From a bacterium (lineage in GTDB: Bacteria; Margulisbacteria; WOR-1; O2-12-FULL-45-9; XYB2-FULL-48-7): a DNA stretch of 64,000 nucleotides. The stretch covers positions 21,125 to 85,124 of the forward strand of contig JBDRLW010000003.1 of NCBI GenBank assembly GCA_043812655.1, given 5' to 3'. The stretch's first letter is position 1, and every line of letters begins with the position of its first letter. The translations under genes and the position numbers were made by a program. The notes beneath the pieces are model-generated. The model made no database searches and was not told where the DNA came from. It saw nothing but the letters and a program-made list of their open reading frames with translations. Below are positions 4,904 through 63,851 of this stretch, in pieces.

Positions 4904-5803
4904 TCAATCGTTTCGTCTTGCTACAACAAAAATGTTTCCTGCCGCGATCGGGAATGATATTGAACCAATCCCAATTTTCTTACAAAAACTTCTAATGATT
5001 GAACCTATTTTATTTTTTAAAAGCATTCTCATCCAATAATCAAGCGGGTAACTATTTTTAATATTCCCAACCTGAAGCACTTTAAGCCCCGCATTTTCAC
5101 ATAAGCGCTTTAAAGTATCCTTATTGAACAGGTATGTATGTTCGACATCAATTATGGGGGATTTCTCCCCCAAAACCATAGCTTGAAGGCCTTTTACATT
5201 ATGGGTAATAAAATAGACAATTCCTCCAGGCTTCAAAAGATCGCGGCAAATCTTAACTGTCTCAACAGGATCACTTAAATGATCCAGGGTCTGAAAAGAA
5301 CAAATTAAATCAAAATATTTGTTTTGATATATTCCTCGGTCAAAGAATCCTGAGTAAATATTCCCCTTGATATCTGAATTGGCCTTAGCCTTAGCGGCCA
5401 GACTGGGTTCGCATCCAAAGACCTCCTTAAATCCAGCCCCCAATAATTTCTCAAGAAAAAACCCACTGCTGCACCCAATTTCCAGCGCAACCCCATTATT
5501 TATCTTGCTTATGAATGGTTTTAAGTGCCGCAGATAATCTTTAGCAATTACCCCAACATACTCATCAAAGGTTACTCCGCTTTGAGAATACAATTTAGAT
5601 AAGCTATCATCACCAAGAATATTTCTTGAAAAAACAAGCCCGCACCTCTGACAACGAACGATCTTGTAGTGAAAATGCTCAGTAATTCTCCTCGCTGAAA
5701 ACACTTCAGGAGTCAGATTCTTCAGCTTAAAGGTTTGTGGATATAATTCAACAATCTCCTCATTATCCTTGCAAAACAAACAATGCTTTTTGACATAATT
5801 CAT
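4904..5803 (-). CDS. class I SAM-dependent methyltransferase with N-terminal Cys4 zinc ribbon (sugar C/O-methyltransferase-like)
   Basis: CxxC...CxxC ('CLFCKD...CQRCG') at the N-terminus. SAM motif I 'ALEIGCSSGFFLEKL'. The architecture matches sugar C-methyltransferases found in glycan clusters. Confidence 0.55.
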   Translation of the reverse strand: MNYVKKHCLFCKDNEEIVELYPQTFKLKNLTPEVFSARRITEHFHYKIVRCQRCGLVFSRNILGDDSLSKLYSQSGVTFDEYVGVIAKDYLRHLKPFISKINNGVALEIGCSSGFFLEKLLGAGFKEVFGCEPSLAAKAKANSDIKGNIYSGFFDRGIYQNKYFDLICSFQTLDHLSDPVETVKICRDLLKPGGIVYFITHNVKGLQAMVLGEKSPIIDVEHTYLFNKDTLKRLCENAGLKVLQVGNIKNSYPLDYWMRMLLKNKIGSIIRSFCKKIGIGSISFPIAAGNIFVVARRND

Positions 5804-5823
5804 ATTTATTAGCCTCCTTATGA

Positions 5824-7809
5824 CTAACGCTGGTTCTTAATAAAAGCATCAATCTCCTCGGGAGTATTAAAACACTTTCCTCCGTAACGGATTGATCTGC
5901 GAATATATTTTGGTCTTTTTTTCGTTTCTTCAAATATTTTTGAAAGATACTCCCCAATAATTGCGATCGCTAACATTTGTATTGAACCGAAAAATAAAAT
6001 GGCAATAATTATTGTCGAGAGTCCTTGTGAGACCGAATTAAAGAATATCTTTGATAGTATTTGCCATATTATTGCCATAAATGAAACCACGGCCAGGCTA
6101 CTACCAAGGTAACCCAAAAACTCTAACGGGACAAAACTAAATGAAAATATCGCTTTTTTTGCCCACCAAATATTTTTCCGCCAATTGTTTGTTGTTGTGC
6201 CAAACAACCTTTCCGGCCTTACATAATCAACCCCGATTTGCTTAAATCCAACCCAAGCCCTTAACCCTCTCAAATACTGGTCGGTTTCTGGAAGATTTAG
6301 CAGTTCATTAACAACTTTGCGATCAATTAGAGAAAAGTCTCCCGCATCTAAAGGGATAGGAATATATGAAACCCCTCGAAATATTTTATAAAACAACTTA
6401 TAAAACATGTTTAAGATTCTCGCAGATTCTCTTTTAACCCTCCGCCCATATACAACCTCAAATCCCTCTTGCCATTTATTAAATAATTCTGGGATAACTT
6501 CGGGAGGGTCCTGAAGATCTCCATCAAGTAAAATAACGGCATCACCGGAGGATATCTCCATCCCAGAAAGAAATGCGCTTTGAGAGCCAAAATTCCTAGA
6601 ATGCTCAATTGCAATCACATGATTGTCTTCATCCACAATTTTCAATAGCACTTCATTTGTATTATCTGGACTTGAATCATTAACAAATATAATTTCGTAA
6701 TCAACTTTAATTCCAGAAAATGACTTTGTTAGGCGCTCCCACATTACAGGGATAGCCTGAGCATCATTGTAACAAGCAACAATCGCAGATATTTTCTTAG
6801 GAATTGTTGCCGCCTTTTTAGCTTTCGGAATAAAAACAGATCGCTGATCCTTTGTCCAAGCAATTGTTTTCGAAAGCCCCTCTTTTAACGAAGCCTTTGC
6901 TTCCCAACCTAAGATCTCTTTTGCATAGGAAGGATCGCCATACCAATCTTTAACATCCCATCTTCTATTTTGCATCGTATTCCATTGGGGTTCTTCCTTC
7001 AGATCAAACAACTCTTTAATCTGTTGAACAATATCTCTCATTGTTGTTTTCTTCCCGGTGGCAATATTTAAGACACCACCAGGCAGTTTTTTTACCCCAA
7101 CACTAGCAGACAATATTATTGCTTCAATAACGTCATCTATGTATAAAAAATCGCGTGATATGTCAGGATTAACTAAAACAGGATATTTACCTTCCATGCC
7201 GTTTTCAATAAGTTTTGGAATTAATCGATCCGGTTCCTCCAGCGGGCCATAGACAGAATATAATCGCAGGCTTAACGTAGGGAGTTTTTTTACTCGACCA
7301 AAATACTTTACCATCAATGAAGAAGCAATCTTGGAAACAGCATAATGACTATTTGGGATTAAATCACCATCTTCTTTGGGCGCAGAAGCATTTAATCCAT
7401 ATTCAGAAGAGGAACCAGCCTGGATATAGGCAGAAAAGCCTTCACGAGCTGCCGCCTCAAGAATACAAGCAGTCGCGACAACGTTTGTGTTATAAATCAG
7501 ATTAAAACCACTTTCCTTGGAATAAGCTCCATATGCAGCCAAATTAATGATAGTTTTAAAGGAATACTTTTTTAAAACACTTGATGTTGATGAATGATTA
7601 TTGATATCTGTCCAAATGATATTGTCCGGTTTTATATCGACAAGCCGCCAAGGATGTCCTTTATCATGAGTTATGCCAAAACAATCATTCCGTACACTTA
7701 AGATTGCCTTAAACAGATTGGCCCCAATAAAGCCCCCAACTCCAAAAATAACAATCGGCCCATCTAAAGCCTTAATTTCACCTATCAATTGATCGCTAAA
7801 TATTTTCAT
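5824..7809 (-). CDS. fusion protein: N-terminal NAD-dependent sugar epimerase/dehydratase (ArnA C-terminal-domain-like) plus C-terminal GT2 polyprenyl-phosphate glycosyltransferase (ArnC/DPM1-like) with C-terminal TM helices
   Basis: Rossmann 'VIFGVGGFIGANL' and 'YAVSKIA' (YxxxK) at the N-terminus. GT2 signature 'IIFVNDSSPDNT' and DxD 'LDGDLQD'. Two C-terminal hydrophobic helices. Confidence 0.6.
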   Translation of the reverse strand: MKIFSDQLIGEIKALDGPIVIFGVGGFIGANLFKAILSVRNDCFGITHDKGHPWRLVDIKPDNIIWTDINNHSSTSSVLKKYSFKTIINLAAYGAYSKESGFNLIYNTNVVATACILEAAAREGFSAYIQAGSSSEYGLNASAPKEDGDLIPNSHYAVSKIASSLMVKYFGRVKKLPTLSLRLYSVYGPLEEPDRLIPKLIENGMEGKYPVLVNPDISRDFLYIDDVIEAIILSASVGVKKLPGGVLNIATGKKTTMRDIVQQIKELFDLKEEPQWNTMQNRRWDVKDWYGDPSYAKEILGWEAKASLKEGLSKTIAWTKDQRSVFIPKAKKAATIPKKISAIVACYNDAQAIPVMWERLTKSFSGIKVDYEIIFVNDSSPDNTNEVLLKIVDEDNHVIAIEHSRNFGSQSAFLSGMEISSGDAVILLDGDLQDPPEVIPELFNKWQEGFEVVYGRRVKRESARILNMFYKLFYKIFRGVSYIPIPLDAGDFSLIDRKVVNELLNLPETDQYLRGLRAWVGFKQIGVDYVRPERLFGTTTNNWRKNIWWAKKAIFSFSFVPLEFLGYLGSSLAVVSFMAIIWQILSKIFFNSVSQGLSTIIIAILFFGSIQMLAIAIIGEYLSKIFEETKKRPKYIRRSIRYGGKCFNTPEEIDAFIKNQR

Positions 7810-36110: not shown

Positions 36111-37004
36111 ATGATAACACAAATAATAGTAAAATATCAAGCTAGATTGAGTATAAGCGATTGGTTTAAACGAAAAAAGCTGGCTCAGGAAGCCACCGCA
36201 ACCCGCGCCCGACTAGATATCCCCAATAATTTATGGGTCAAGTGCGGTCAGTGCGGTACGGCTATTTATAAGAAAGATCTGGAAGCCAACCAAAAAGTTT
36301 GCCCCAAATGTGAATTTCATTTTAAGGTGAGCTCGGCCGAAAGGATCGCCCAGTTATTTGAGCCGGAAAGTTTTGTGGAGATCAACCACGATATTACTTC
36401 GAAAAACTTCCTTGATTTCTCCGACACTAAAAATTACACCGCCAGGATCGATGGATCGATCGCTAAATCAGGGCTGAAAGACGCCATCGTTACCGGCACC
36501 GGCAAGATCGGCCAGCATGAAGTCGCCTTTGGCGGGATGGATTTTTCTTTCATGGGGGGAAGCATGGGTTCGGTCGTCGGGGAGAAAATTGCCCGATTGA
36601 TAGAGGTCGCTGTTGAGCAGAAGATCCCGGTCATTATTGTCTCAACCTCCGGCGGGGCCAGGATGCAGGAAAGCATAATGTCGCTGATGCAAATGGCTAA
36701 AACTTCCGCTGCCCTGGGACGCCTGCGGGAAAACGGCCTCCCCTATATTTCAATTTTAACCGACCCAACAACCGGCGGCGTTTCCGCCAGCTACGCCATG
36801 CTGGGCGATATTAATATCGCGGAACCGGGCGCTCTTATCTGTTTTGCCGGTCCCCGGGTAATTGAACAAACGATCAGGCAAAAACTCCCGCCCGGTTTTC
36901 AACGGGCTGAATTCTTGCAAGAGCACGGGATGATCGACGTAGTGTGCTCAAGAAAACATTTAAAAGAAACATTAACAAGAATATTAAAATTCTTTAAAAA
37001 TTAG
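36111..37004 (+). CDS. accD: acetyl-CoA carboxylase carboxyltransferase subunit beta
   Basis: 'SDWFKRKK' N-terminus. Zn ribbon 'CGQCGTAIYKKDLEANQKVCPKCEFH'. 'GGMDFSFMGGSMGSVVGEK' is the CT-beta motif. The true start may be the TTG at about 36147. Confidence 0.85.
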   Translation: MITQIIVKYQARLSISDWFKRKKLAQEATATRARLDIPNNLWVKCGQCGTAIYKKDLEANQKVCPKCEFHFKVSSAERIAQLFEPESFVEINHDITSKNFLDFSDTKNYTARIDGSIAKSGLKDAIVTGTGKIGQHEVAFGGMDFSFMGGSMGSVVGEKIARLIEVAVEQKIPVIIVSTSGGARMQESIMSLMQMAKTSAALGRLRENGLPYISILTDPTTGGVSASYAMLGDINIAEPGALICFAGPRVIEQTIRQKLPPGFQRAEFLQEHGMIDVVCSRKHLKETLTRILKFFKN

Positions 37005-37094: not shown

Positions 37095-38066
37095 ATGGCA
37101 AAAATAAATAATAACAAACCAAAACTCCTCCTCGAAAAACCGCTGGAGGAGCTTTACGCTAAGATCGAAAAATTAAAAGTCCTTCAGGAATCCGGCAAAA
37201 TGGACATGACCGAGGAGATCAAAATGCTGGAGAAAAGGATCGAAAATACCCGTAAAGAAATATTCTCCAAGATTACGCCGATCCAATGCGTCCAAGTTGC
37301 CCGTTACATTATGAGACCGACTACGCTTGATTATATCGATCTGCTATTTAAAGACTTTGTTGAACTCCATGGCGATCGTAATTTTTCTGACGATCCAGCT
37401 TTAGTTACCGGGATCGCCAATCTCGATGGCCGCTCGGTCATTGTGATGGGCCACCAAAAAGGCCATTCAACCAAAGAAAATATTGCCCGCAATTTTGGGA
37501 TGGCAAATCCTGAAGGCTACCGCAAAGCCCTCCGGCTAATGCGCCTGGCCGAGCGTTACAACAAGCCGATCATTTCTTTTGTTGATACGCCGGGAGCATA
37601 TTGCGGTTTAGGCGCTGAAGAACGTGGCCAAGCCGAAGCGATCGCTAAAAACCTTCGGGAAATGGCAGAGCTGACTGTCCCCTTTATTTCCATTATTACT
37701 GGTGAGGGTGGCTCTGGAGGGGCGCTAGGAATAGCGATGGGAAATAAAGTTTTGATGCTTGAATATTCAATTTATTCGGTGATCTCCCCCGAAGGCTGCG
37801 CCTCGATCCTTTTCCGTGACGCATCACGCGCTAATGAAGCGGCTAATGCGATGAGGATCACCGCGCCAGACCTGCTTGAACTCGGGGTAATTGATGAAGT
37901 GATCAAAGAACCGATCGGCGGCGCGCACAACGATCCGGCCTTTATGGCCAAAAATATCAAGGCCGCCATTTTAAAACATCTAGAACCGCTTCTCTCCCTC
38001 TCTCACCGCGAGCTAATAGCCGACCGGTACAACAAATACCGGAAGATGGGAATTTTTAACGGATAA
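37095..38066 (+). CDS. accA: acetyl-CoA carboxylase carboxyltransferase subunit alpha
   Basis: 'ARHPQRP'-like 'VARYIMRPTTLDYI', 'DTPGAYCGLGAEERGQAEAIA' and 'GEGGSGGALG' are canonical AccA motifs. Confidence 0.9.
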   Translation: MAKINNNKPKLLLEKPLEELYAKIEKLKVLQESGKMDMTEEIKMLEKRIENTRKEIFSKITPIQCVQVARYIMRPTTLDYIDLLFKDFVELHGDRNFSDDPALVTGIANLDGRSVIVMGHQKGHSTKENIARNFGMANPEGYRKALRLMRLAERYNKPIISFVDTPGAYCGLGAEERGQAEAIAKNLREMAELTVPFISIITGEGGSGGALGIAMGNKVLMLEYSIYSVISPEGCASILFRDASRANEAANAMRITAPDLLELGVIDEVIKEPIGGAHNDPAFMAKNIKAAILKHLEPLLSLSHRELIADRYNKYRKMGIFNG

Positions 38067-38080
38067 ATATTTGGTAAATG

Positions 38081-38260
38081 CCGCGGAGAGGAATTGAACC
38101 TCCATGGGTTTAACCCCGCTAGCTCCTGAAGTCCCGCTTCATTAATATTTTATCATAATGACTTGCGGGATCCCGACGATTACATTATTATCATATCTTA
38201 ATGACCGTCGGGACTAGTGCGCCCGCCTTCGGCGGGTAAATCTGCCAGATAATAAACTTG
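38081..38260 (-). pseudogene. 5'-truncated tRNA-Leu-like pseudogene carrying two short hairpin insertions
   Basis: Minus strand reads TGGCAGA, then insert tttacccgccgaaggcggg, then CGCACTAG, then an 88-nt insert with the tcccgacg...cgtcgggatccc hairpin, then CTTCAGGAGCTAGCGGGGTTAAACCCATGGAGGTTCAATTCCTCTCCGCGGCA. Confidence 0.5.
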
Positions 38261-38270
38261 CTTCTTCAAA

Positions 38271-38354
38271 TGCCCAGGAGAGGAATTGAACCTCCATGGG
38301 TTTAACCCCGCTAGCTCCTGAAGCTAGTGCGTCTGCCAGTTCCGCCACCTGGGC
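38271..38354 (-). tRNA. tRNA-Leu (anticodon CAG)
   Basis: The reverse complement folds as a class II tRNA. Acceptor GCCCAGG/CCTGGGC, anticodon loop TTCAGGA, long variable arm, T-loop TTCAATT. Confidence 0.85.
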
Positions 38355-38424
38355 ATTTGAAGGTGGAAATATTCTCTCATAAATTGACTGCTGATTCAAG
38401 ATATTTTTCTGAAAAAAAAGGAGA

Positions 38425-38486
38425 TAGTTCCGCTTTACCCGCCACAGGTGGGTTTACCCGCCGCAGGCGGGCATAGCGGCATAAAA
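38425..38486. repeat. duplicated tRNA-Leu 5' end (GCCGCTATG) followed by hairpin element CCCGCC-N-GGCGGG-TAAA
   Basis: Minus-strand read: TGCCGCTATG, then cccgcctgcggcgggtaaa, then cccacctgtggcgggtaaagcgg. Confidence 0.45.
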
Positions 38487-38571
38487 TGCCGCTGGCCGGA
38501 GTTGAACCGGCACGGGGGTTAACCCCACTTGATTTTGAGTCAAGCGCGTCTGCCAATTCCACCACAGCGGC
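38487..38571 (-). tRNA. tRNA-Leu (anticodon CAA)
   Basis: The reverse complement is GCCGCTGTGGTGGAATTGGCAGACGCGCTTGACTCAAAATCAAGTGGGGTTAACCCCCGTGCCGGTTCAACTCCGGCCAGCGGCA. The anticodon loop CTCAAAA gives CAA. Confidence 0.85.
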
Positions 38572-38700
38572 ATTTCGACTCCGTCTCGACTCACTGCGTT
38601 CGCTCGACGTCGCTCAATGCCGAGAGAAGCCGAGACATTCCACTTTACCCGCCTGCCTACCGGCAGGCAAGCCGTAGGCGGGCACAGCGGCACGACAACT
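38572..38700. repeat. composite repeat upstream of tRNA-Leu(CAA): CTCGAC-family hairpin plus duplicated tRNA 5' end interrupted by palindromic hairpin CCCGCCTACGGCTTGCCTGCCGGTAGGCAGGCGGG-TAAA
   Basis: Minus-strand read: TGCCGCTGTG, then cccgcctacggcttgcctgccggtaggcaggcgggtaaa, then GTGGAAT, then gtctcg...cgagac, then the intact tRNA. The same palindrome in opposite orientation is at 44720-44760. Confidence 0.5.
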
Positions 38701-38855
38701 ATGGTGAGTATAGCAAAATAATTAAAGCTTGACAATAAACTATCTTATAATGTATTATAAAGATGTCCCAATAAACGACCACATTTTACAATTTTTTCTT
38801 AATGACAACAAAATTAACAATTTCTCAATCAAACAAAAACAAGTTTATCTAACCT

Positions 38856-38942: not shown

Positions 38943-40187
38943 ATGGATATTGTAGAGTTAGAAGGTAAGACCCTGCCCCAATTATACGAGGTCGCCAAAG
39001 GTTTGAACATTGCCAACCTGCGGCAATTAAAAAAGCACGACCTGGTTTTTAAGATCCTCGAAGCCCAGACCGAAAAGAACGGCCACATTTTCACCAAAGG
39101 GATCCTAGAGATCCTGCCCGAAAATTATGGTTTCTTGCGGACCGGCGGCTATCTCCCCAGCCGGGAAGACGTTTATGTTTCGCAAACCCAGATCCGCCGC
39201 TTTGATATGCAAAACGGTGATTTTGTCACCGGCCAGGTCCGGCCGCCTAAAGAGGGCGAAAAATATTATAGTTTGCTGAAGATCGAAGCGATCAACGGCG
39301 AAAATCCGGAAGGGGCGAGACAGCGCATACCATTTGACAGCTTAACACCAATTTTCCCCAACCGCCGCTTTGGTTTGGAATTTCCCGGTTGCCCCATGGC
39401 TTGCCGGTTGATTGACATGGTCGCGCCGATCGGCGCCGGCCAAAGAGCAATGATCGTCTCGCCGCCAAAGGCCGGTAAAACCACGGTCTTGAAAAATATC
39501 GCTAACTCGATCACTGAAAATTTCCCTGAAACCCTGATCAAAGTCTTACTGGTTGATGAACGGCCGGAAGAAGTGACCGATATGCAAAGGTCAGTTAAAG
39601 GCGAAGTCGTTGCTTCAACTTTTGATGAGCCGCCGGAGGACCACATTAGGATCGCCGAATTATTACTGGAAGCTTGCAAACGCTTAGTTGAAGCAGGCAA
39701 AGATGTCGTAATCCTCCTTGATTCGATCACCCGCTTAGCTCGGGCTTACAATTTAGTTACCCCACCCTCCGGCCGGACGCTGTCCGGCGGTCTTGACCCG
39801 ACTTGTCTCCACCGGCCAAAGCGCTTCTTCGGCGGCGCGCGGAATATTGAAGAAGGCGGCAGTTTAACGATCATCGCTACTGCTCTAGTTGAAACCGGCT
39901 CCAGGATGGACGATATTATTTATGAAGAGTTCAAAGGAACAGGTAATATGGAACTCCACCTCAACCGTAAGCTGGCTGACCGGAGAATTTTCCCAGCGAT
40001 CGACGTGCGGCTCTCCGGCACCAGGCGCGAAGAGCTCCTAATGGACGATAAGGAACTGAAAAAGATGTGGCTCTTGCGCAAAGTGATGGACAATTACGAG
40101 GCGGTTGAAGCGACCGAACAATTAATTGAACGGCTCAAAACCTTTAAGACTAATAAGCAGTTCTTTGATTCGGCTGATGTAAAGTAA
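38943..40187 (+). CDS. rho: transcription termination factor Rho
   Basis: N-terminal '[18 protein letters not shown]' Rho-N. Walker A '[18 protein letters not shown]'. 'Q-loop/R-loop' regions. Length 414 aa. Confidence 0.9.
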
Positions 40188-41049
40188 TTTGATTTAACTT
40201 TCCAAATTGAAACAATTCAACTTGCGAAGCAGGTTTTTCAGTACCATTTTCATCTTGTATAACAAATAATTGGCTTTCTGGATATGGCACTTTCCCCCAG
40301 GCGAATTGGAGCTTTTGGAAATAGGCAACTCCTTTATTTCTTAACAATTCCTTTTCTCCCCTTGATTTGAACGCATTATTATTTAATAACCTATAAATAA
40401 AACTATAAGCATAAGCAGAGGCGAAAAATTCGGTCGTAAATTTAGACGTCTGTCTTCCAACTTGTTCGACAATTTTTAAATACCCAAGCTGACAAATTAA
40501 TGCTACGGCTAAGTTGATCGCCTCAATTTTTTCAGTATTTTTAAAACTGCTGCGCAACAAGATAGCTTTGGTTGGTTTTCTCCTTTCACGGGAAGGATCA
40601 ATCGCCCCATTCTTTTCCAGGCAATATTTAATGTTCTGTATTACCGTTCCGGAAATTGGCAGAAACCCTTGACGATTCTCCATTGCTTCCCCCAAATAGG
40701 TTGAAAAACCAACGTAGCGGCAATAGGATTTCAAATCCATCCGATAAAACACTTCCGCCTTTTCAACAATATCTAATATTTCTTTGGGCAAATTCCCTGC
40801 GCGTAAAATCAGGACGGTATCACCAATACTCTGTTCAGCAGGCCGCATAGCTTGCCTTAATTCAGAAAAACTCAAGCCGTGTTTCCTTTGCGCTGGGGAA
40901 AGCCTAACTATCCGAAAATCCAGTGTCCTTTCCACTAATGAAATGTCTCTTCCTTGCCCGGGCAGTCTCTCAATTTGAATTTGCGATGCTTGAACAGCCC
41001 CGTTTTTCCCCCAACGTATTCTACCTTTGCCGCTTATTCTTGTATTCAT
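40150..41049 (-). CDS. hypothetical protein (no recognisable motif), operonic with the upstream PEP-utilizing enzyme
   Basis: 299 aa. Starts 2 nt after the stop of 41051-43396. No P-loop and no obvious catalytic motif. Confidence 0.4.
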   Translation of the reverse strand: MNTRISGKGRIRWGKNGAVQASQIQIERLPGQGRDISLVERTLDFRIVRLSPAQRKHGLSFSELRQAMRPAEQSIGDTVLILRAGNLPKEILDIVEKAEVFYRMDLKSYCRYVGFSTYLGEAMENRQGFLPISGTVIQNIKYCLEKNGAIDPSRERRKPTKAILLRSSFKNTEKIEAINLAVALICQLGYLKIVEQVGRQTSKFTTEFFASAYAYSFIYRLLNNNAFKSRGEKELLRNKGVAYFQKLQFAWGKVPYPESQLFVIQDENGTEKPASQVELFQFGKLNQITLHQPNQRTAY

Positions 41050-41050
41050 A

Positions 41051-43396
41051 TTATTTTATTCCCTCGATCATGCTAATGCTTTTGGCTTTTTTCCTTACGT
41101 TTAAATAACTCACCGGCCTTGGTGACTTAACTAATTCTCCAATAACGGTCCTGGTATCATAATGCTTGCTTTTTTGAGCTAAGCGAACTAATAACTTTCT
41201 AACTTCCATCGCATTTTTTTGATCCAATAAAGCTTCAATTAATGGCTTTTTTAATTTCCGCTCAAATTTTTTCCATTCCCCATAATGAAAATATGATAAC
41301 AAATACTTTATCTGGTTTTGCCAGGCAGGATTCATGCTCAACGAATCTATCCCCATTAAAGTTAATACTAACGCTCCTAATGGGTCTCTAGCCATTTCCC
41401 CGCAAAAACCAATTCTACCTTTATGCCTTTCTTGATATAACTTTGTTAATAACCCATGAGCTGCTAATTTTTCTTTTTCCGAAACTTTACTAGCCGATAA
41501 AAAGGCCGTAAAATCAGCTTCAGGCTCTTTCATGATTATATAAGCATCTCTAGTTACCTTTAACAAATATCCATGTTTCTGCAGCTCATTTTTCAGCGGT
41601 TCAGACCAGCTGGCAATTTCTTCCACCTTTATGGAACCCTTAACGCCTTTAATCGCCTCAAATATATACCCTAATACTTTTGGTGACAGCCAATCATATT
41701 CCATTCCGGTCATTAGTTTTGCTCGATCATCAATCTCTAATACCGCGGCAGTTAGATCATTGCCCCCAATAGAAAACACCTGGCATTTTTGGGCGATCGC
41801 TTCAATATTTTCTACTGCTTCTGGCGTCTCAACCATAGCGCCAAGCTGAATGAATTGGCTGACACGTCGCTGATCAATAGTGTAATCGGTAATTAAATCA
41901 GTCTCATATTTTTTTACTAAATGTGCGACTTGCTCAACCTGTTCAGGGGTCCGGATCATTGGGATAATAACAGAAACCTTTTTCCCTGCTAAACCATCTT
42001 CATCTGGATAATATTTCAGACGATCACAAGCAATCAATAGATCCCTGATCTGATCCCTTAAAATGGCTTTCCCTTTGTCAACTTGTAGCAAAAAATCAAC
42101 CCCTCTTTTCCCTTGCGTAAAATCATCAAAAGTGCTTTCCGCTTTTGGATACTTATCCTTATCCACGTCAAAAAAGCGAAAAACAATATCTGTCGTTGCT
42201 TCAATAGCATTAATAAATTGTCTTATTAAAGACGGATTTGTTGGTCTCCCCAGCGTATAATGATCTTCCGTGCGATAAAGACCAACTTCTTGAGTCTGCG
42301 CCCCCTCACTCCCCATATTTTCCATGATCTTTGGCAACGGTAAACGTTGATCATCTCCAGATAACCCTGTCCAGTGTGTGTCTGCATACTTCTTTGCTTG
42401 AGCCATCGCATCACCGATCTCTTTATTCATTAAACTAATATTGCGATCATCAACATTCACCACAACTTGTCCTGTATGGGGGTTCATTATTACTTTTACT
42501 TCCGGATCTATGTGCGCAAATACTTTTTTGGCTTCTGACATCAAAACTACAGGAATCCCGCGATTAAATGCCAATAAATATGGATGGCTTGCCAAACCCA
42601 TAAATTGATGGTCAAAAATAAAGCCTCTCGCCCCAAGATGAACATGAGATTGAATCTCTCCCCAAGCAAGATAATCAGCTACTAAATAATAACCTGTTTG
42701 CTGTATGGGACAATTAACGCCATCAATATGCGCCAATAATCGGGGCAAATACAACTCTGCGTCCTTGTATTGCTCCTGTTGCCGCATGTGTATTGGGACT
42801 TGGCTATTAAATATAATCCTTAACTCTTTTAACTTCCTATATATTGAAGCTCGATCATTAGGTTCTACCAGTTTTTTTTCTTGTAACAATCTTGATTTAT
42901 CCACAACATCTCTTTCTGTCTTATTAAACAAATCAACTGAAACCTGAAGAAAAGCCTTAAAAGAAGCAACAAATTGCGGCCATACCGTTTCAAATGCTTG
43001 ATGGGCAGAAATATTCTGCTGTTCAATCATCATTTTAGATTGTGTAGCCGCTTCTTTAATCACATAACCAAAGGCCTCATCTTTTTTATATGCTTCAACC
43101 AATGAATCTATTTTTTTAAGTTCATCCTCTTTTTTAATCGGCAGTAATTGATTATTCGTACCGCAAACAACCTGATCGATCAATAGACAACTGGGTAAAA
43201 CATAAGCTGGGTTTTTATCTAGAGGTATTTGTTTCTCTGGTGGAGGCAAAACTCCATTCCCTCGACCAGTAAAAGTCAAATTTTTTGTAAGTGGCCGGCG
43301 CTTTGAAAATGAATGGTTTTCTTTTCGTACTACTCCGTTTATTATCTTACTAAGGGTCATATTAATACTCCTGATCATTAAATAGCATTCAACCAC
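41051..43396 (-). CDS. PEP-utilizing enzyme, PTS enzyme I (PtsI/PtsP)-like, with a novel ~230-aa N-terminal extension
   Basis: Mobile His domain 'LGARGFIFDHQFMGLASHPYLLAFNRGIPVVLMSE'. EIC TIM-barrel blocks 'LYRTEDHY', 'FRFFDVDKDKYP', 'IIPMIRTPEQV', 'GAMVETPEAV', 'FSIGGNDLTAAVLEIDDR' and 'FCGEMARDP'. Confidence 0.6.
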   Translation of the reverse strand: MVECYLMIRSINMTLSKIINGVVRKENHSFSKRRPLTKNLTFTGRGNGVLPPPEKQIPLDKNPAYVLPSCLLIDQVVCGTNNQLLPIKKEDELKKIDSLVEAYKKDEAFGYVIKEAATQSKMMIEQQNISAHQAFETVWPQFVASFKAFLQVSVDLFNKTERDVVDKSRLLQEKKLVEPNDRASIYRKLKELRIIFNSQVPIHMRQQEQYKDAELYLPRLLAHIDGVNCPIQQTGYYLVADYLAWGEIQSHVHLGARGFIFDHQFMGLASHPYLLAFNRGIPVVLMSEAKKVFAHIDPEVKVIMNPHTGQVVVNVDDRNISLMNKEIGDAMAQAKKYADTHWTGLSGDDQRLPLPKIMENMGSEGAQTQEVGLYRTEDHYTLGRPTNPSLIRQFINAIEATTDIVFRFFDVDKDKYPKAESTFDDFTQGKRGVDFLLQVDKGKAILRDQIRDLLIACDRLKYYPDEDGLAGKKVSVIIPMIRTPEQVEQVAHLVKKYETDLITDYTIDQRRVSQFIQLGAMVETPEAVENIEAIAQKCQVFSIGGNDLTAAVLEIDDRAKLMTGMEYDWLSPKVLGYIFEAIKGVKGSIKVEEIASWSEPLKNELQKHGYLLKVTRDAYIIMKEPEADFTAFLSASKVSEKEKLAAHGLLTKLYQERHKGRIGFCGEMARDPLGALVLTLMGIDSLSMNPAWQNQIKYLLSYFHYGEWKKFERKLKKPLIEALLDQKNAMEVRKLLVRLAQKSKHYDTRTVIGELVKSPRPVSYLNVRKKAKSISMIEGIK

Positions 43397-43464: not shown

Positions 43465-44706
43465 ATGTTTGGAATAAATGAAGTCGAGAGAGAAATAGGG
43501 TCAAGGGTCCAGGGTCCAAGGTCCAGAAGAATTAGCAGCATCTCCATCGATTCCCGCACTGTCCAACCCGGTGAACTATTTATCCCGATCAAAGGGGAGA
43601 AATTTGATGGGAATAAGTTTATTAAAGACGCTCTAGCCAAAGGGGCTTTTGTCGTCGAAACAAAAGACGGGCTAACCGCCCTGCACCAGCTCGCCGCTTA
43701 CCACCGCAGTAAATTTGATCTTCCGGTCATCGCCATCACCGGCAGTGTGGGGAAAACGACGACCAAAGACATGCTTGCCTCGATCCTCTCCCAAGCGATG
43801 CCAACCTTAAAGAACGAACAGAACTATAATAATGAAATAGGCGTCCCCCTCACCCTCCTTAAGCTGACCAAAAAGCATAAAGCCGCGGTAATTGAGATGG
43901 GCATGCAGGGAAAGGGAGAAATTGAGCTTTTGGCCAAGATCGCCAGGCCAACTATCGCCATTGTTACCAATATCGGCGAAGCCCACCTTGAACAACTGGG
44001 GACTAAAGCTAATATTGCCAAAGCTAAAGCCGAAGTCTTTAAATTCCTAAAAAAAGAAGATTGGGTGGTGATCAACGCGGATGATGAATACTACGAACAT
44101 TTAGTAGCCAGGGTCCAGGGTCCAGGGGCCAGGGTAAAAACCTTTGGTATTATTGAGAAGGCTGACATTAGAACAAAAGAATTGACGGGGATCAATCTGC
44201 CGCTGCCCGGCGAACACAACATTTATAACGCCCTGGCGGCGATCGCGGTGGCGAAAATCTTAAAAATTAAAAAGCCAGCCATTAAAAAAGGGCTGGAAAC
44301 TTTTAAGCCTTCCAGCAAGCGGATGGAAGTGATCAACCGGCCAGACGGGACAAAGATCATTAACGATACCTATAACGCTAATCCCCAATCAATGGCGGCA
44401 ACCCTAAAAGTCTTAGCCGGTATTGAGCGGCCAAATGTAAAAAGGATCGCAGTCTTGGGAAGTATGCTGGAACTTGGCAAACGCTCCAAAGCCGCTCATG
44501 CCAAGATAATTAAACTGGCCAAACAATTAAAGATCGACAAAGTCTTAACTTTTGGCGAATTCTGGCCAAGCCTGGCTCCAGCGGAAAAAACCAAAAAGAA
44601 CTTAATAAAAAAATTACGGCAATTAATAGCGCCTCGTGATATAATTTTAATCAAGGGCTCCCGGGGAATGAGGATGGAAGACGTGGTCGACGCGATCAGA
44701 ACTTAA
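43465..44706 (+). CDS. murF: UDP-N-acetylmuramoyl-tripeptide--D-alanyl-D-alanine ligase
   Basis: 'SIDSRTVQPGELFIPIKGEKFDGNKF', P-loop 'ITGSVGKTTTKDM', 'NADDEY', 'EHNIYNALAA' and 'INDTYNANPQSM'. Confidence 0.85.
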   Translation: MFGINEVEREIGSRVQGPRSRRISSISIDSRTVQPGELFIPIKGEKFDGNKFIKDALAKGAFVVETKDGLTALHQLAAYHRSKFDLPVIAITGSVGKTTTKDMLASILSQAMPTLKNEQNYNNEIGVPLTLLKLTKKHKAAVIEMGMQGKGEIELLAKIARPTIAIVTNIGEAHLEQLGTKANIAKAKAEVFKFLKKEDWVVINADDEYYEHLVARVQGPGARVKTFGIIEKADIRTKELTGINLPLPGEHNIYNALAAIAVAKILKIKKPAIKKGLETFKPSSKRMEVINRPDGTKIINDTYNANPQSMAATLKVLAGIERPNVKRIAVLGSMLELGKRSKAAHAKIIKLAKQLKIDKVLTFGEFWPSLAPAEKTKKNLIKKLRQLIAPRDIILIKGSRGMRMEDVVDAIRT

Positions 44707-44709
44707 CGT

Positions 44710-44774
44710 GCCGCGGTGGCCCGCCTACGGCTTGCCTGCCGGTAGGCAGGCGGGTAAATGGAACTGGCTGGCAC
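44710..44774 (+). pseudogene. tRNA-Leu 5' fragment (GCCGCGGTGG...GAACTGGCTGGCAC) interrupted in the D-arm by palindromic hairpin element
   Basis: GCCGCGGTGG, then cccgcctacggcttgcctgccggtaggcaggcgggtaaatg, then GAACTGGCTGGCAC. The acceptor 5' strand is complementary to the ...CCGCGGCA end at 45013. Confidence 0.45.
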
Positions 44775-44803
44775 TTACATCCCGAAGTTGAATGCAATTT
44801 TTT

Positions 44804-44887
44804 GCCGAGGTGGTGGAACTGGCAGACACACCAGCTTGAGGGGCTGGCGCCGTTAAAAGCGTAGGAGTTCAAATCTCCTCCTCGGCA
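44804..44887 (+). tRNA. tRNA-Leu (anticodon GAG)
   Basis: GCCGAGGTGGTGGAACTGGCAGACACACCAGCTTGAGGGGCTGGCGCCGTTAAAAGCGTAGGAGTTCAAATCTCCTCCTCGGCA. Class II cloverleaf with anticodon loop TTGAGGG. Confidence 0.85.
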
Positions 44888-44913
44888 TAAAAATTGCTTT
44901 CAAATTCAGAGAT

Positions 44914-45013
44914 GGAGGTTCTCCCGACGGACATTATAATAGAATAATGATGAAATCGTCGGGATCCCGATTTCCGCCAAAGGCGGAACATCGGGAAAGT
45001 CCTCTCCGCGGCA
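44914..45013 (+). pseudogene. tRNA-Leu 3' fragment (T-arm plus acceptor, GGAGGTTC...CCTCTCCGCGGCA) with a hairpin element inserted in the T-loop
   Basis: GGAGGTTC, then tcccgacggacattataatagaataatgatgaaatcgtcgggatccc-gatttccgccaaaggcggaacatcggga, then aagtCCTCTCCGCGGCA. The same 3' end sequence as the 38081 fragment. Confidence 0.45.
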
Positions 45014-45016
45014 TTA

Positions 45017-45664
45017 TTAATTTGCCTTTTTTCTTAATCCCGAAACTGTTGTAAAACTATACCCCTTTTTCTTTAGATCTTTGATCATTATTGGCAGGGC
45101 CTCGACTATTTGCCGGCTATTATCATGCATCAACACTACCGAGCCATTCCGCACCAGGGAAGTAACCCTTTTGGCGATCGAAGCCGCCGTTCGCATCCCC
45201 TTTTTTGGCTGGTAGAAATCGTCAGCGTTCGCGTTCCATAACACGATCTCATAGCCCGCTTTTTCGATCAGCTTTCTTTTAGAATATGGTAATCGCCCGT
45301 GCGGCGGGCGGAAAAGAACAACCTTTTTATTAGTAGCCTTCATGATCAAAAGGGAAGTCTCTCTAATCTCTGCCAGCGTTTTCTTATCATCCATCTGGTC
45401 CAAGGACGTATGGCTGTAGGTGTGGTTCCCGATCTCGTGCCCGTCCGCGCTTGCCTGGCTGACAAACTGCGGATTATCCTTAACTTTCCAGCCGATCACA
45501 AAAAAGGTCACCGGGACATTTTCCTTTTTCAGTATAGGCAAGAGCTTATCGATGACGCCAGGCGTTGGCCCATCGTCAAAAGTTAAAGCAACCTGCTTTT
45601 TCGCGCTCGCGGAAAAAGCTAAACATAATGCCAAGATCAAGATAATGGATATTTTTCTTACCAT
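45017..45664 (-). CDS. secreted polysaccharide deacetylase (NodB homology domain)
   Basis: Signal peptide 'MVRKISIILILALCLAFSASA'. 'LTFDDGP' catalytic motif. 'HTYSH' and 'FRPPHG' are NodB motifs. Confidence 0.75.
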   Translation of the reverse strand: MVRKISIILILALCLAFSASAKKQVALTFDDGPTPGVIDKLLPILKKENVPVTFFVIGWKVKDNPQFVSQASADGHEIGNHTYSHTSLDQMDDKKTLAEIRETSLLIMKATNKKVVLFRPPHGRLPYSKRKLIEKAGYEIVLWNANADDFYQPKKGMRTAASIAKRVTSLVRNGSVVLMHDNSRQIVEALPIMIKDLKKKGYSFTTVSGLRKKAN

Positions 45665-63482: not shown

Positions 63483-63649
63483 GCGCGCTTAGTCCCGACG
63501 ATTCGACTTGCGTCGAATGTCGGGATCCCGATTTCCGCTGTAAGCGGAACATCGGGACTCAGCTGGTTAGAGTACTTGTCCCGATGGTCATTAGAATAGA
63601 TAGTAATGGAATCATCGGGATCCCGAGGCTGAAGCTACCATTATTGCGC
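63483..63649 (+). pseudogene. duplicated tRNA-Val 5' fragments (acceptor plus D-arm) interrupted by two 'TCCCGACG...CGTCGGGATCCC' hairpin elements
   Basis: GCGCGCTTAG, then insert 1, then TCAGCTGGTTAGAGTACTTG, then insert 2 (63579-63645), then the intact tRNA-Val. Confidence 0.45.
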
Positions 63650-63723
63650 GCGCGCTTAGCTCAGCTGGTTAGAGTACTTGCTTGACAGGCAAGGGGTCAC
63701 AGGTTCGAAACCTGTAGCGCGCA
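63650..63723 (+). tRNA. tRNA-Val (anticodon GAC)
   Basis: GCGCGCTTAGCTCAGCTGGTTAGAGTACTTGCTTGACAGGCAAGGGGTCACAGGTTCGAAACCTGTAGCGCGCA. Anticodon loop TTGACAG. Confidence 0.85.
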
Positions 63724-63745
63724 ATAATGGATTAGTTTACTCGGG

Positions 63746-63851
63746 ACTTGACAGGTGCCTTGACTTAGCTCGGCACAGGCAAGGGGTCACAGGTTCGCCT
63801 GCCCCGAGCGAGGAACGAAGTGACGAGTCGAGGGGAAACCTGTAGCGCGCA
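63746..63851 (+). pseudogene. tRNA-Val 3' fragment copy (anticodon loop to acceptor) with insertions in the anticodon loop and T-loop
   Basis: CTTGACAGG, then tgccttgacttagctcggca, then CAGGCAAGGGGTCACAGGTTCG, then cctgccccgagcgaggaacgaagtgacgagtcgagggg, then AAACCTGTAGCGCGCA. The T-loop insert is the reverse complement of the CTCGAC-family repeat. Confidence 0.45.

Follow-up and report, generated by a model that had tools for sequence, protein, structure and literature searches.

Why should a bacterial chromosome carry a tRNA-Leu gene that is split around another, intact tRNA-Leu gene? Such an arrangement lies at positions 44710-45013 of the margulisbacterial contig stretch analysed here (64 kb in full length, hereafter the window), where two pieces of an outer tRNA-Leu gene, both carrying hairpin inserts, flank an intact tRNA-Leu(GAG). 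An earlier note on this DNA had described the arrangement and had offered repeated element insertion, or a past inversion between tRNA-Leu copies, as its cause. All of its statements about the sequence hold, and element insertion turned out to be the right class of explanation. We consider it probable that the tRNA-Leu(GAG) locus is the scar of a tRNA gene replacement, and that it belongs to a widespread family of selfish elements that are associated with tRNA genes and possess a GIY-YIG nuclease.

The outer gene starts 3 nt after the stop codon of murF. Its two acceptor strands (GCCGCGG and CCGCGGC) are exact complements, as the earlier note had reported, and the gene is devoid of an anticodon arm and a variable arm. 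The hairpin insert of the 5' piece is composite. Its nested part is identical at 18/20 positions to a widespread palindrome (CCTGCCTGCCGGCAGGCAGG), and the whole 39-mer recurs without change at 38644-38682. The 3' piece contains two hairpins of another type, TCCCG...CGGGA (44922-44964 and 44965-44996), and further members of this family exist in the window at 38132-38213 and 63493-63620. The intact tRNA gene is enclosed by complementary leader and trailer arms, and the stem formed by these arms is also present in the predicted RNA fold. A TCCCGA leader is seen in the related loci L009 and L014, too.

We then compared the two tRNA-Leu(GAG) genes with those of relatives. MurF homologues place the window in the Margulisiibacteriota (WOR-1, Saganbacteria), with a best identity of 71%. 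In 16/16 relatives whose contig reaches past murF, this gene is followed by a tRNA-Leu(GAG) on the same strand, which starts 0-36 nt after the murF stop codon except in L002 (55 nt), L006 (80 nt) and L009 (72 nt). Two tRNA-Leu(GAG) alleles exist among the relatives, a GCCGAGG type and a GCCGCGG type. The inner gene of the window is of the former type and 98.8% identical to the tRNA of L006, and the outer pieces match the latter type, which is found directly after murF in L008, L015 and L019. The two blocks of the 5' piece agree with the L015 tRNA-Leu(GAG) at 24/26 positions. The 3' piece agrees with the 3' end of the L008 tRNA-Leu(GAG) at 24/25 positions and with that of the L010 and L015 tRNA-Leu(CAG) at 25/25. 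Because the outer pieces match the allele that relatives have at the same site after murF, the outer gene appears to be the old resident. A tRNA of a different allele would have been inserted into it, with the loss of the anticodon and variable arms.

The architecture is not restricted to this locus. An outer tRNA-Val copy, into which six units (hairpins or other sequences) are inserted at four sites, encloses an intact tRNA-Val(GAC) at 63650-63723, and the outer copy without its inserts is identical to the inner tRNA at 74/74 positions. The inner tRNA-Val lies in the loop of a TCCCGAG...CTCGGGA hairpin, which is inserted between anticodon-stem positions 30 and 31. The same insertion site is used by a pair of TCCCG...CGGGA hairpins in a tRNA-Leu(CAG) fragment described below. 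Since the tRNA-Val locus is built like the tRNA-Leu(GAG) locus, the nesting of an intact tRNA within a split one recurs in this genome.

Furthermore, hairpin-bearing partial copies adjoin all three intact tRNA-Leu genes of the window. On the minus strand at 38.0-38.7 kb, a 5' piece is followed by tRNA-Leu(CAA), a second 5' piece, a 70-nt stretch, tRNA-Leu(CAG) and a fragment corresponding to the 3' two-thirds of a tRNA (Table 1). The first part of this fragment (38079-38131) ends in ...GGAGGTTCAATTCCTCTCCGCGGCA, and the fragment continues past its inserts to 38248. One insert is a CCCGCC hairpin in reversed orientation (38222-38240), and the other two are TCCCG...CGGGA hairpins (38132-38170 and 38171-38213). 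A block of 47 nt (38085-38131) is 100% identical to the intact tRNA-Leu(CAG), and L010 carries the same 3' fragment with the same reversed hairpin. The earlier note had linked the fragment to the split gene at 44.7 kb. Its sequence is of the same type as the tRNA-Leu(CAG) of L014, and it instead seems to be what remains of an old tRNA-Leu(CAG) at its own ancestral site next to accA. The fragment resembles the 45-kb piece because the Leu isoacceptors in a genome share the acceptor stem and T arm; the GCCGCGG acceptor and a GGAGG T stem are common to Leu isoacceptors within L008 and within L015. The 70-nt stretch keeps about 14 last codons and the spacer of a nuclease open reading frame (ORF), which is introduced below. 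This ORF relic, the two 5' pieces and the tRNA-Val locus had escaped the earlier note.

Two side observations concern related repeats. A third repeat family (...GAGCGAnGTCGAGCGA...GAGTCGAGAC...) is found directly 5' of tRNA-Leu genes in the window (38573-38636), L002 (4869-4923) and L011 (11249-11272), and is similar to the insert in the T loop of the outer tRNA-Val (63798-63835) as well as to inserts at L138, L148 and L161. L004 possesses, at 5716-6250, a 3' fragment of tRNA-Leu(CAA) broken at GGTTC/TCCCG (slash, break point), the same T-loop site as in the 3' piece of the window, followed by an array, about 0.5 kb long, of different hairpin repeats (CCCCAGACTAAAGTCTGGGG, CCACACACTTCAGTGTGTGG).

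Table 1. Features of the tRNA-Leu and tRNA-Val loci in the window (positions are those of the 64-kb stretch)
Feature	Position	Strand	Evidence
5' block of the outer (probably old) tRNA-Leu(GAG), GCCGCGGTGG: acceptor 5' strand GCCGCGG + TGG	44710..44719	+	sequence
39-nt composite hairpin insert, CCCGCC-TAC-GGCGGG-TAAA with a nested variant of the 20-nt palindrome, CTTGCCTGCCGGTAGGCAGG	44720..44758	.	motif scan
D-arm block of the outer tRNA-Leu(GAG), TGGAACTGGCTGGCAC	44759..44774	+	sequence
Leader arm of the inverted repeat, TTACATCCCGAAGTTGAATGCAATTTTT; 28-nt spacer before the inner tRNA	44775..44802	+	19-nt arms, 89% complementary
Inner intact tRNA-Leu(GAG), GCCGAGG allele, presumed functional gene	44803..44888	+	ARAGORN; Rfam tRNA 50.1 bits
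Trailer arm of the inverted repeat; ~25-nt spacer after the inner tRNA	44889..44913	+	inverted-repeat search, fold
T-stem 5' strand of the outer tRNA + TTC, GGAGGTTC	44914..44921	+	sequence
Two tandem TCCCG...CGGGA hairpins in the T loop of the outer tRNA	44922..44996	.	motif scan
Outer tRNA, AAGTCCTCTCCGCGGCA: remaining T loop, T-stem 3' strand, acceptor 3' strand CCGCGGC, discriminator A	44997..45013	+	sequence
Probable remains of an old tRNA-Leu(CAG), D loop to 3' end, GCCGCGG type, three inserts	38079..38248	-	sequence comparison
Intact tRNA-Leu(CAG), GCCCAGG allele; acceptor stem extended by 8 bp through leader and trailer	38270..38355	-	ARAGORN, Rfam, inverted-repeat search
Relic of the 3' end of the GIY-YIG nuclease ORF + spacer	38356..38426	-	alignment with ORF ends of L010 and L003
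5' tRNA-Leu piece, GCCGCTATG-hairpin-hairpin-GCGGAAC	38427..38481	-	motif scan
Intact tRNA-Leu(CAA)	38486..38572	-	ARAGORN, Rfam
5' copy of tRNA-Leu(CAA), GCCGCTGTG-39-nt hairpin-GTGGAAT	38637..38692	-	motif scan, inverted-repeat search
Outer tRNA-Val copy enclosing intact tRNA-Val(GAC); second full example of nesting	63483..63851	+	sequence

The hairpin motifs are far more frequent in the 64 kb than in shuffled sequence. CCCGCC..GGCGGGTAAA occurs in 5 copies and TCCCGACG..CGTCGGGA in 2 copies, against 0.00 expected for each, and TCCCG..CGGGA occurs in 8 copies against 1.8 expected, a number that was reached by no shuffle. Except for one TCCCG..CGGGA match inside accD (36886-36930), all of them lie within tRNA-derived pieces.

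The relatives reveal an association with a nuclease gene. In L003 and L010, an ORF for a protein of 81-82 residues is located between a hairpin-bearing 5' tRNA-Leu piece and an intact tRNA-Leu(CAG). The hairpin is of the same CCCGCC-NNN-GGCGGG-TAAA type as in the window and follows G9, and the ORF encodes a GIY-YIG domain (PF01541, E = 1e-15 to 1e-18). The complete nested form exists in L116. There, an outer 5' piece (GCCTGGG) is followed by the ORF, a second 5' piece, an inner tRNA-Leu(TAA) (GCCGCGG) and finally an outer 3' piece. This last piece bears a hairpin in its T loop, and its acceptor strand matches that of the outer 5' piece. CCCGCC hairpins are found at matching tRNA positions beside the ORF in L003, L010, L116 and L131. 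The distribution of the ORF is patchy: it is present in L003, L010 and L116, remains as a relic in the window and L005 (a similar relic lies at 1520-1602 of the latter), and is absent from L006, L008, L011, L014 and L015. On the basis of L003, L010, L116 and L081-L164, we operationally defined a class of cassettes by an ORF for a GIY-YIG protein of about 80 residues beside an intact tRNA on the same strand, an extra copy of a tRNA of the same isotype flanking the intact one, and a family hairpin (CCCGCC-NNN-GGCGGG-TAAA or the 20-nt palindrome) in the D arm or T loop. The window lacks the first of these features and has the other two. Extra copies are 44710-44774 with 44914-45013, 38079-38248, 38427-38481, 38637-38692 and 63483-63851, and the insert at 44720-44758 holds both family hairpins, one nested in the other.

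We then surveyed homologues of the ORF, which are numerous. The first 4/4 contexts, from Saganbacteria, Ekhidna lutea and two further contigs, all showed an interrupted 5' copy, the ORF and an intact tRNA. Our survey sample consisted of 80 metagenomic homologue loci, 71 of which are not cut by a contig end. ARAGORN found a tRNA on the same strand within 100 nt of the ORF stop codon at 56/71 loci; the chance expectation of such adjacency is, by a rough estimate, well under 1%. The stop codon often lies inside the tRNA (offsets -10, -22/-23 or -27), and eleven amino-acid specificities are represented among the adjacent tRNAs. The loci without a called adjacent tRNA have, where inspected, an intact tRNA upstream or a long insert in the anticodon loop. 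At L100 (2782-3110), about 250 nt are inserted into the anticodon loop of the tRNA downstream of the GIY-YIG ORF. The insert probably represents a group I intron, and this tRNA is missed by ARAGORN.

The upstream side of the ORF is equally characteristic. At 43 loci, a copy covering 20 nt or more of the same tRNA lies just 5' of the ATG codon, mostly beginning exactly at tRNA position 1, and all of its blocks are 100% identical to the tRNA at 34/43 of these loci. A palindrome, in most cases the perfect 20-mer CCTGCCTGCCGGCAGGCAGG, splits about 40 of the upstream copies, and the majority of the interrupted copies break off at positions 23-39 and lead directly into the ORF. The 302 kb of sequence contain 64 copies of the 20-mer, of which 45 precede an ATG codon by no more than 100 nt, 12 lie just past a stop codon and 0 inside the ORFs. 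Mirror forms, with an intact tRNA, the ORF and an interrupted 3' copy, are found at L098, L130 and L131, and near-full interrupted copies at L132, L143 and L189. Insertions recur at the same few sites, which lie at the 3' ends of loops (GGTA/GAGC, GGTAGA/CGC, TTCGAnn/TCC and AAAA/TCT, where the slash marks the insertion point), and no target-site duplication was found at the tRNA insertion sites examined.

The proteins conserve the catalytic residues Y5, Y16, R26, H30 and E62. Their closest solved structures are those of UPF0213 proteins (E = 1e-10) and SLX1 (E = 5e-5), and the nuclease clades track the tRNA species. Searches with PADLOC and PHROGs returned only weak, motif-level GIY-YIG matches; a reading as a defence system, or as a toxin with an RNA decoy, is unsupported. 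The observations that bear on a putative nuclease-dependent mobility (homing) are the patchy distribution among relatives and the conserved catalytic residues.

A probable course of events at the tRNA-Leu(GAG) locus is as follows. A resident tRNA-Leu(GAG) with a GCCGCGG acceptor would have been located directly after murF, and a short cassette with a complete tRNA-Leu(GAG) of the other allele, placed between complementary leader and trailer arms, would have landed inside it. The anticodon and variable arms of the old gene would have been lost and its two ends would survive as non-functional pieces, into whose D arm and T loop short palindromic hairpins then entered. The inner tRNA would be the working gene. 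The tRNA-Leu(CAG), tRNA-Leu(CAA) and tRNA-Val of this genome may have been hit by the same process. Complete members of the family have an ORF for a UPF0213/Slx1-type GIY-YIG protein of about 80 residues wedged between a palindrome-interrupted partial tRNA copy and an intact tRNA. As the nuclease gene is gone from the window and only a relic is left, the copies in the window would be relics, or else non-autonomous elements driven from elsewhere in the genome. Since the hairpins of the window are intact and two have the same sequence, they may still be acted upon by a nuclease whose gene lies in another part of the genome.

The kinship of the ORF product with structure-specific nucleases suggests that it cuts tRNA-gene DNA, plausibly where loops meet stems in an extruded or single-stranded cloverleaf. 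Repair with a copy that bears the element as template would then install the ORF, or the ORF together with a tRNA, and one intact tRNA would be kept through duplication of the target segment or import of a whole tRNA. The palindromes are seen only in redundant copies, presumably since a cell would not survive their insertion into its only intact copy. The palindromes may be insertion scars or immunity marks at the cut site, by a rough estimate the likeliest of three roles considered, although somewhat less probable than not. That they are the cruciform substrate of the nuclease is doubtful, and a role in the mRNA leader is unlikely. Two further ideas about the palindromes were dropped: that they cap homology blocks below the recombination threshold (blocks of 28-52 nt also occur), and that a unit from palindrome to palindrome moves like a transposon (its excision would not restore the tRNA).

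A broader proposal can be put forward with some reserve. The small UPF0213/Slx1-type GIY-YIG proteins could represent a multi-phylum class of selfish elements living in tRNA genes, which would recognize these genes by structure, insert at loop/stem junctions, spare the host through tRNA duplication or import, and seed palindromes in the redundant copy. The TCCCG...CGGGA hairpins of the window would then be non-autonomous derivatives, one of them with a whole tRNA as cargo that replaces resident alleles, in a horizontal turnover of tRNA alleles.

Several observations weigh against replacement by a member of this nuclease family. There is no intact nuclease gene in the 64-kb window, where a six-frame hidden Markov model search gave a best E-value of 1.5, nor is there an ORF relic at the tRNA-Leu(GAG) locus, whose link to the family consists only of shared hairpin types and shared architecture. 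The TCCCG..CGGGA hairpins are absent from the 164 fetched loci and from the viral contigs, are so far unique to this genome, and have no enzyme assigned to them. The 20-mer is not exclusive to the element, since 42 exact sites occur in IMG/VR viral contigs (L165-L199) and 40 of these are away from tRNAs and this ORF; some of the viral matches may be due to chance in CCTG/CAGG-rich DNA. In most loci outside the Margulisbacteria the redundant copy equals the intact tRNA, and duplication in situ fits them as well as import. Because the intact tRNA has the same sequence as the interrupted copy, a simple immunity by target destruction does not explain why the intact tRNA is stable. Finally, the cutting by the nuclease, its target and its mobility are all read from sequence. 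As to the viral sites themselves, three are flanked by direct repeats of 7-14 nt, and 2/42 are of the tRNA type; in L189, removal of the palindrome restores a tRNA-Met, beside an intact tRNA.

Some of these points would be expected if tRNA genes had simply been duplicated in tandem and had decayed, with generic palindromes, like repetitive extragenic palindromic (REP) sequences or miniature inverted-repeat transposable elements (MITEs) and unrelated to GIY-YIG proteins, tolerated in the dead copies. The missing nuclease ORF, the lack of a link between the TCCCG..CGGGA hairpins and the ORF, and the viral palindromes away from tRNAs agree with such a history, and the identity of outer and inner tRNA-Val is as expected of a recent duplication. 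We nevertheless judge it unlikely. Dispersed REP- or MITE-like repeats would be scattered in many intergenic copies, usually with target-site duplications, whereas the hairpins here are almost confined to tRNA pieces, the match in accD being the exception. Chance tolerance in dead copies also sits poorly with CCCGCC hairpins at the same tRNA positions beside the ORF in L003, L010, L116 and L131, with the ORF relic at the tRNA-Leu(CAG) locus, and with 45/64 palindromes close to an ATG codon. Moreover, the outer and inner Leu genes are of different alleles, each with its matches in other relatives.

Alternatively, the outer copies could be functional, the hairpins and the inner-tRNA segment being removed as small introns to give a second mature tRNA. 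The exonic blocks are indeed well kept, as in the 74/74 match of tRNA-Val and the 47-nt block of the tRNA-Leu(CAG) fragment. The predicted RNA folds of the tRNA-Leu(GAG) locus (44708-45015, z = -8.7) and the tRNA-Val locus (z = -9.6) are nested and close the outer acceptor stems, and the pairing of hairpin stems is kept through a compensatory change (ACG/CGT vs ATG/CAT). However, the outer tRNA-Leu(GAG) pieces do not add up to a full cloverleaf, as both the anticodon and variable arms are entirely missing, and the outer tRNA-Leu(CAG) 5' and 3' pieces form no perfect acceptor stem. Most interrupted copies in the survey are truncated and run into the ORF, and an intact copy adjoins nearly every locus that could be checked. 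The inserts in the window loci are hairpins of 19-43 nt, without the ribozyme core of about 200-300 nt of a group I intron, which is usually located in the anticodon loop. An Rfam search at gathering threshold gave only the tRNAs, and E-value scans of 44650-45080 and 38000-38760 gave these and two sub-threshold, chance-level matches, and no intron or ribozyme family. We know of no bulge-helix-bulge splicing pathway in bacteria. Functional outer copies are thus very improbable.

It is also hardly to be expected that the pieces are attachment-site scars of integrase-mediated islands or prophages, once integrated in tRNA-Leu and later excised or deleted. tRNA genes are well-known targets of integration, in the course of which a part of the tRNA is duplicated; the gene content downstream of the tRNA-Leu(GAG) differs from that in relatives, too. 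However, 5' as well as 3' parts are duplicated here, the pieces are only 25-28 nt from the intact tRNA, and Pfam annotation of the neighbouring genes shows no integrase. An island of this kind would have a tyrosine or serine integrase gene, and direct repeats of the tRNA 3' end would bound kilobases of cargo. An integrase crossover leaves no hairpins at D-loop and T-loop junctions, and the relatives have a GIY-YIG ORF, not an integrase, in the equivalent place.

Least credible is the inversion of the rho...murF segment between inverted tRNA-Leu copies that the earlier note had suggested, or an assembly artefact: the segment does lie between inverted 19-nt copies of the 3' end, and repeats can mislead assemblers, but the order accA-(tRNAs)-rho-...-murF-tRNA-Leu(GAG) is co-oriented wherever the contigs of relatives reach, and the same nested architecture is found in the independent assemblies L010, L116 and L143 and at four loci of the window. 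The synteny comparison that the note had called for gave a constant orientation: rho and murF are co-oriented in 16/16 relatives holding both genes, and this, with the kept order of murF and tRNA-Leu(GAG), refutes the inversion. The recurrent gene order is GHMP(-)-accD-accA-tRNA-Leu(CAA), tRNA-Leu(CAG)-rho-murF-tRNA-Leu(GAG), with GHMP(-)-accD-accA upstream in 5 of those relatives. Only the tRNA-Leu(CAA)/tRNA-Leu(CAG) pair between accA and rho (about 0.2-0.6 kb) varies in orientation. L006, L008, L014 and L015 have it on the plus strand (L004 and L005 have non-adjacent plus-strand copies), and the minus strand carries it in the window as well as in L010 and L011; L003 has a minus-strand tRNA-Leu(CAG). 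The flip of the pair is a small local inversion independent of the nuclease ORF, as L011 has the inverted pair without the fragments.

Among known systems, homing endonucleases in general, including those encoded by free-standing GIY-YIG genes, offer a comparison (PMC2988022, PMC13096335). The element is presumed here to spread as they do, by a double-strand break and repair that co-converts flanking tRNA sequence, with the difference that cleavage by its nuclease is putative. SegB of phage T4 is reportedly encoded by a free-standing GIY-YIG homing endonuclease gene in the tRNA region of the phage. The element likewise has a small nuclease gene beside tRNA genes and a patchy presence. Unlike Seg proteins and I-TevI, the element protein consists only of a catalytic domain of about 80 residues (UPF0213/Slx1 clade) without a DNA-binding domain. 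Unlike the phage Seg genes, the element is chromosomal and found in several bacterial groups, and its ORF lies within a partial duplication of one tRNA, often with its stop codon inside the tRNA and with a conserved palindrome in the redundant copy. In fractured genes, a free-standing homing endonuclease gene has inserted itself and split the host gene (Dassa et al. 2009, PMC2677866). In both cases a host gene is broken by a nuclease gene and its function is kept, but fractured genes are rescued at the protein level by split inteins, whereas the tRNA gene would be rescued at the DNA level by a complete tRNA copy that is kept or imported, the broken pieces being dead.

Integrative elements that target tRNA genes carry a replacement 3' tRNA segment. 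They resemble the element in that a working tRNA is kept and a displaced partial copy is left behind, but the element has no integrase, is only about 0.1-0.4 kb long, duplicates 5', 3' or whole tRNAs and bears hairpins in the displaced copy. Short mobile palindromes include the Rickettsia palindromic elements, REP sequences with REP-associated tyrosine transposases (RAYTs) and the GC clusters of yeast mitochondria. They, too, are short hairpin-forming inserts that favour certain sequence contexts, and some are served by a nuclease or transposase gene of their own. In contrast, the inserts of the window lie almost only in redundant tRNA copies, those of the tRNA-linked loci examined are found at fixed loop/stem junctions without target-site duplication, and the associated enzyme would be a GIY-YIG nuclease and not an HUH transposase. 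Archaeal tRNA genes can be split, permuted or interrupted by multiple introns, and bacterial tRNA genes can have group I introns (PMC13011429, PMC3984707). The element shares with these the interruptions at several positions and the nested predicted RNA fold. It differs in that the outer gene is incomplete, that an intact copy lies beside nearly every interrupted one checked, and that its hairpins lack a ribozyme and a bulge-helix-bulge motif. None of the systems compared combines a nuclease of catalytic domain only, a partial tRNA duplication and a conserved palindrome. We found no description of this architecture in the open-access literature, and the element is apparently undescribed, although it may have been described elsewhere.

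If the replacement reading is correct, it would explain the odd tRNA fragments and pseudo-tRNAs met by annotation pipelines in many bacterial genomes, and would offer a testable role for the very common GIY-YIG proteins of about 80 residues (UPF0213 and Slx1-like) that have no known function. Cultured hosts of the family exist, for example Ekhidna lutea and Lutimonas. Duplication or replacement of the target would be a third way for a nuclease gene to reside inside an essential gene, besides self-splicing introns and inteins, and the element may also promote the replacement of tRNA alleles by horizontal transfer. For a structure-specific nuclease, the invariant 20-nt palindrome may serve as a defined DNA substrate.

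The surroundings of the loci have some features of their own. The earlier note had also invoked the inversion for an unusual operon between rho and murF (40150-43396, minus strand), which encodes a phosphoenolpyruvate (PEP)-utilising enzyme of 781 residues and a protein of 299 residues without a Pfam family. The insert with the PEP-utilising enzyme is common to L001 and L016 and requires no tRNA-mediated inversion; rho and murF are adjacent in most relatives. A promoter and terminator scan of 44400-45200 gave no match and was uninformative. The GC content of the first 30 kb of the window is about 38-40%, with a single 2-kb bin at 45%, and the GC skew is strongly negative in most of this part. 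From 30000 to 64000, the GC content is mostly about 44-51% with a skew mostly near zero, except that the PEP-enzyme insert at 40-44 kb has about 40% GC and a negative skew. The shift in composition at about 30 kb may mark an island or a strand-bias boundary. Runs of GGGTCCA-like heptamers (AGGGTCCAGGGTCCAGGG...) are found inside the coding sequence of murF at 43497-43522 and 44096-44135.

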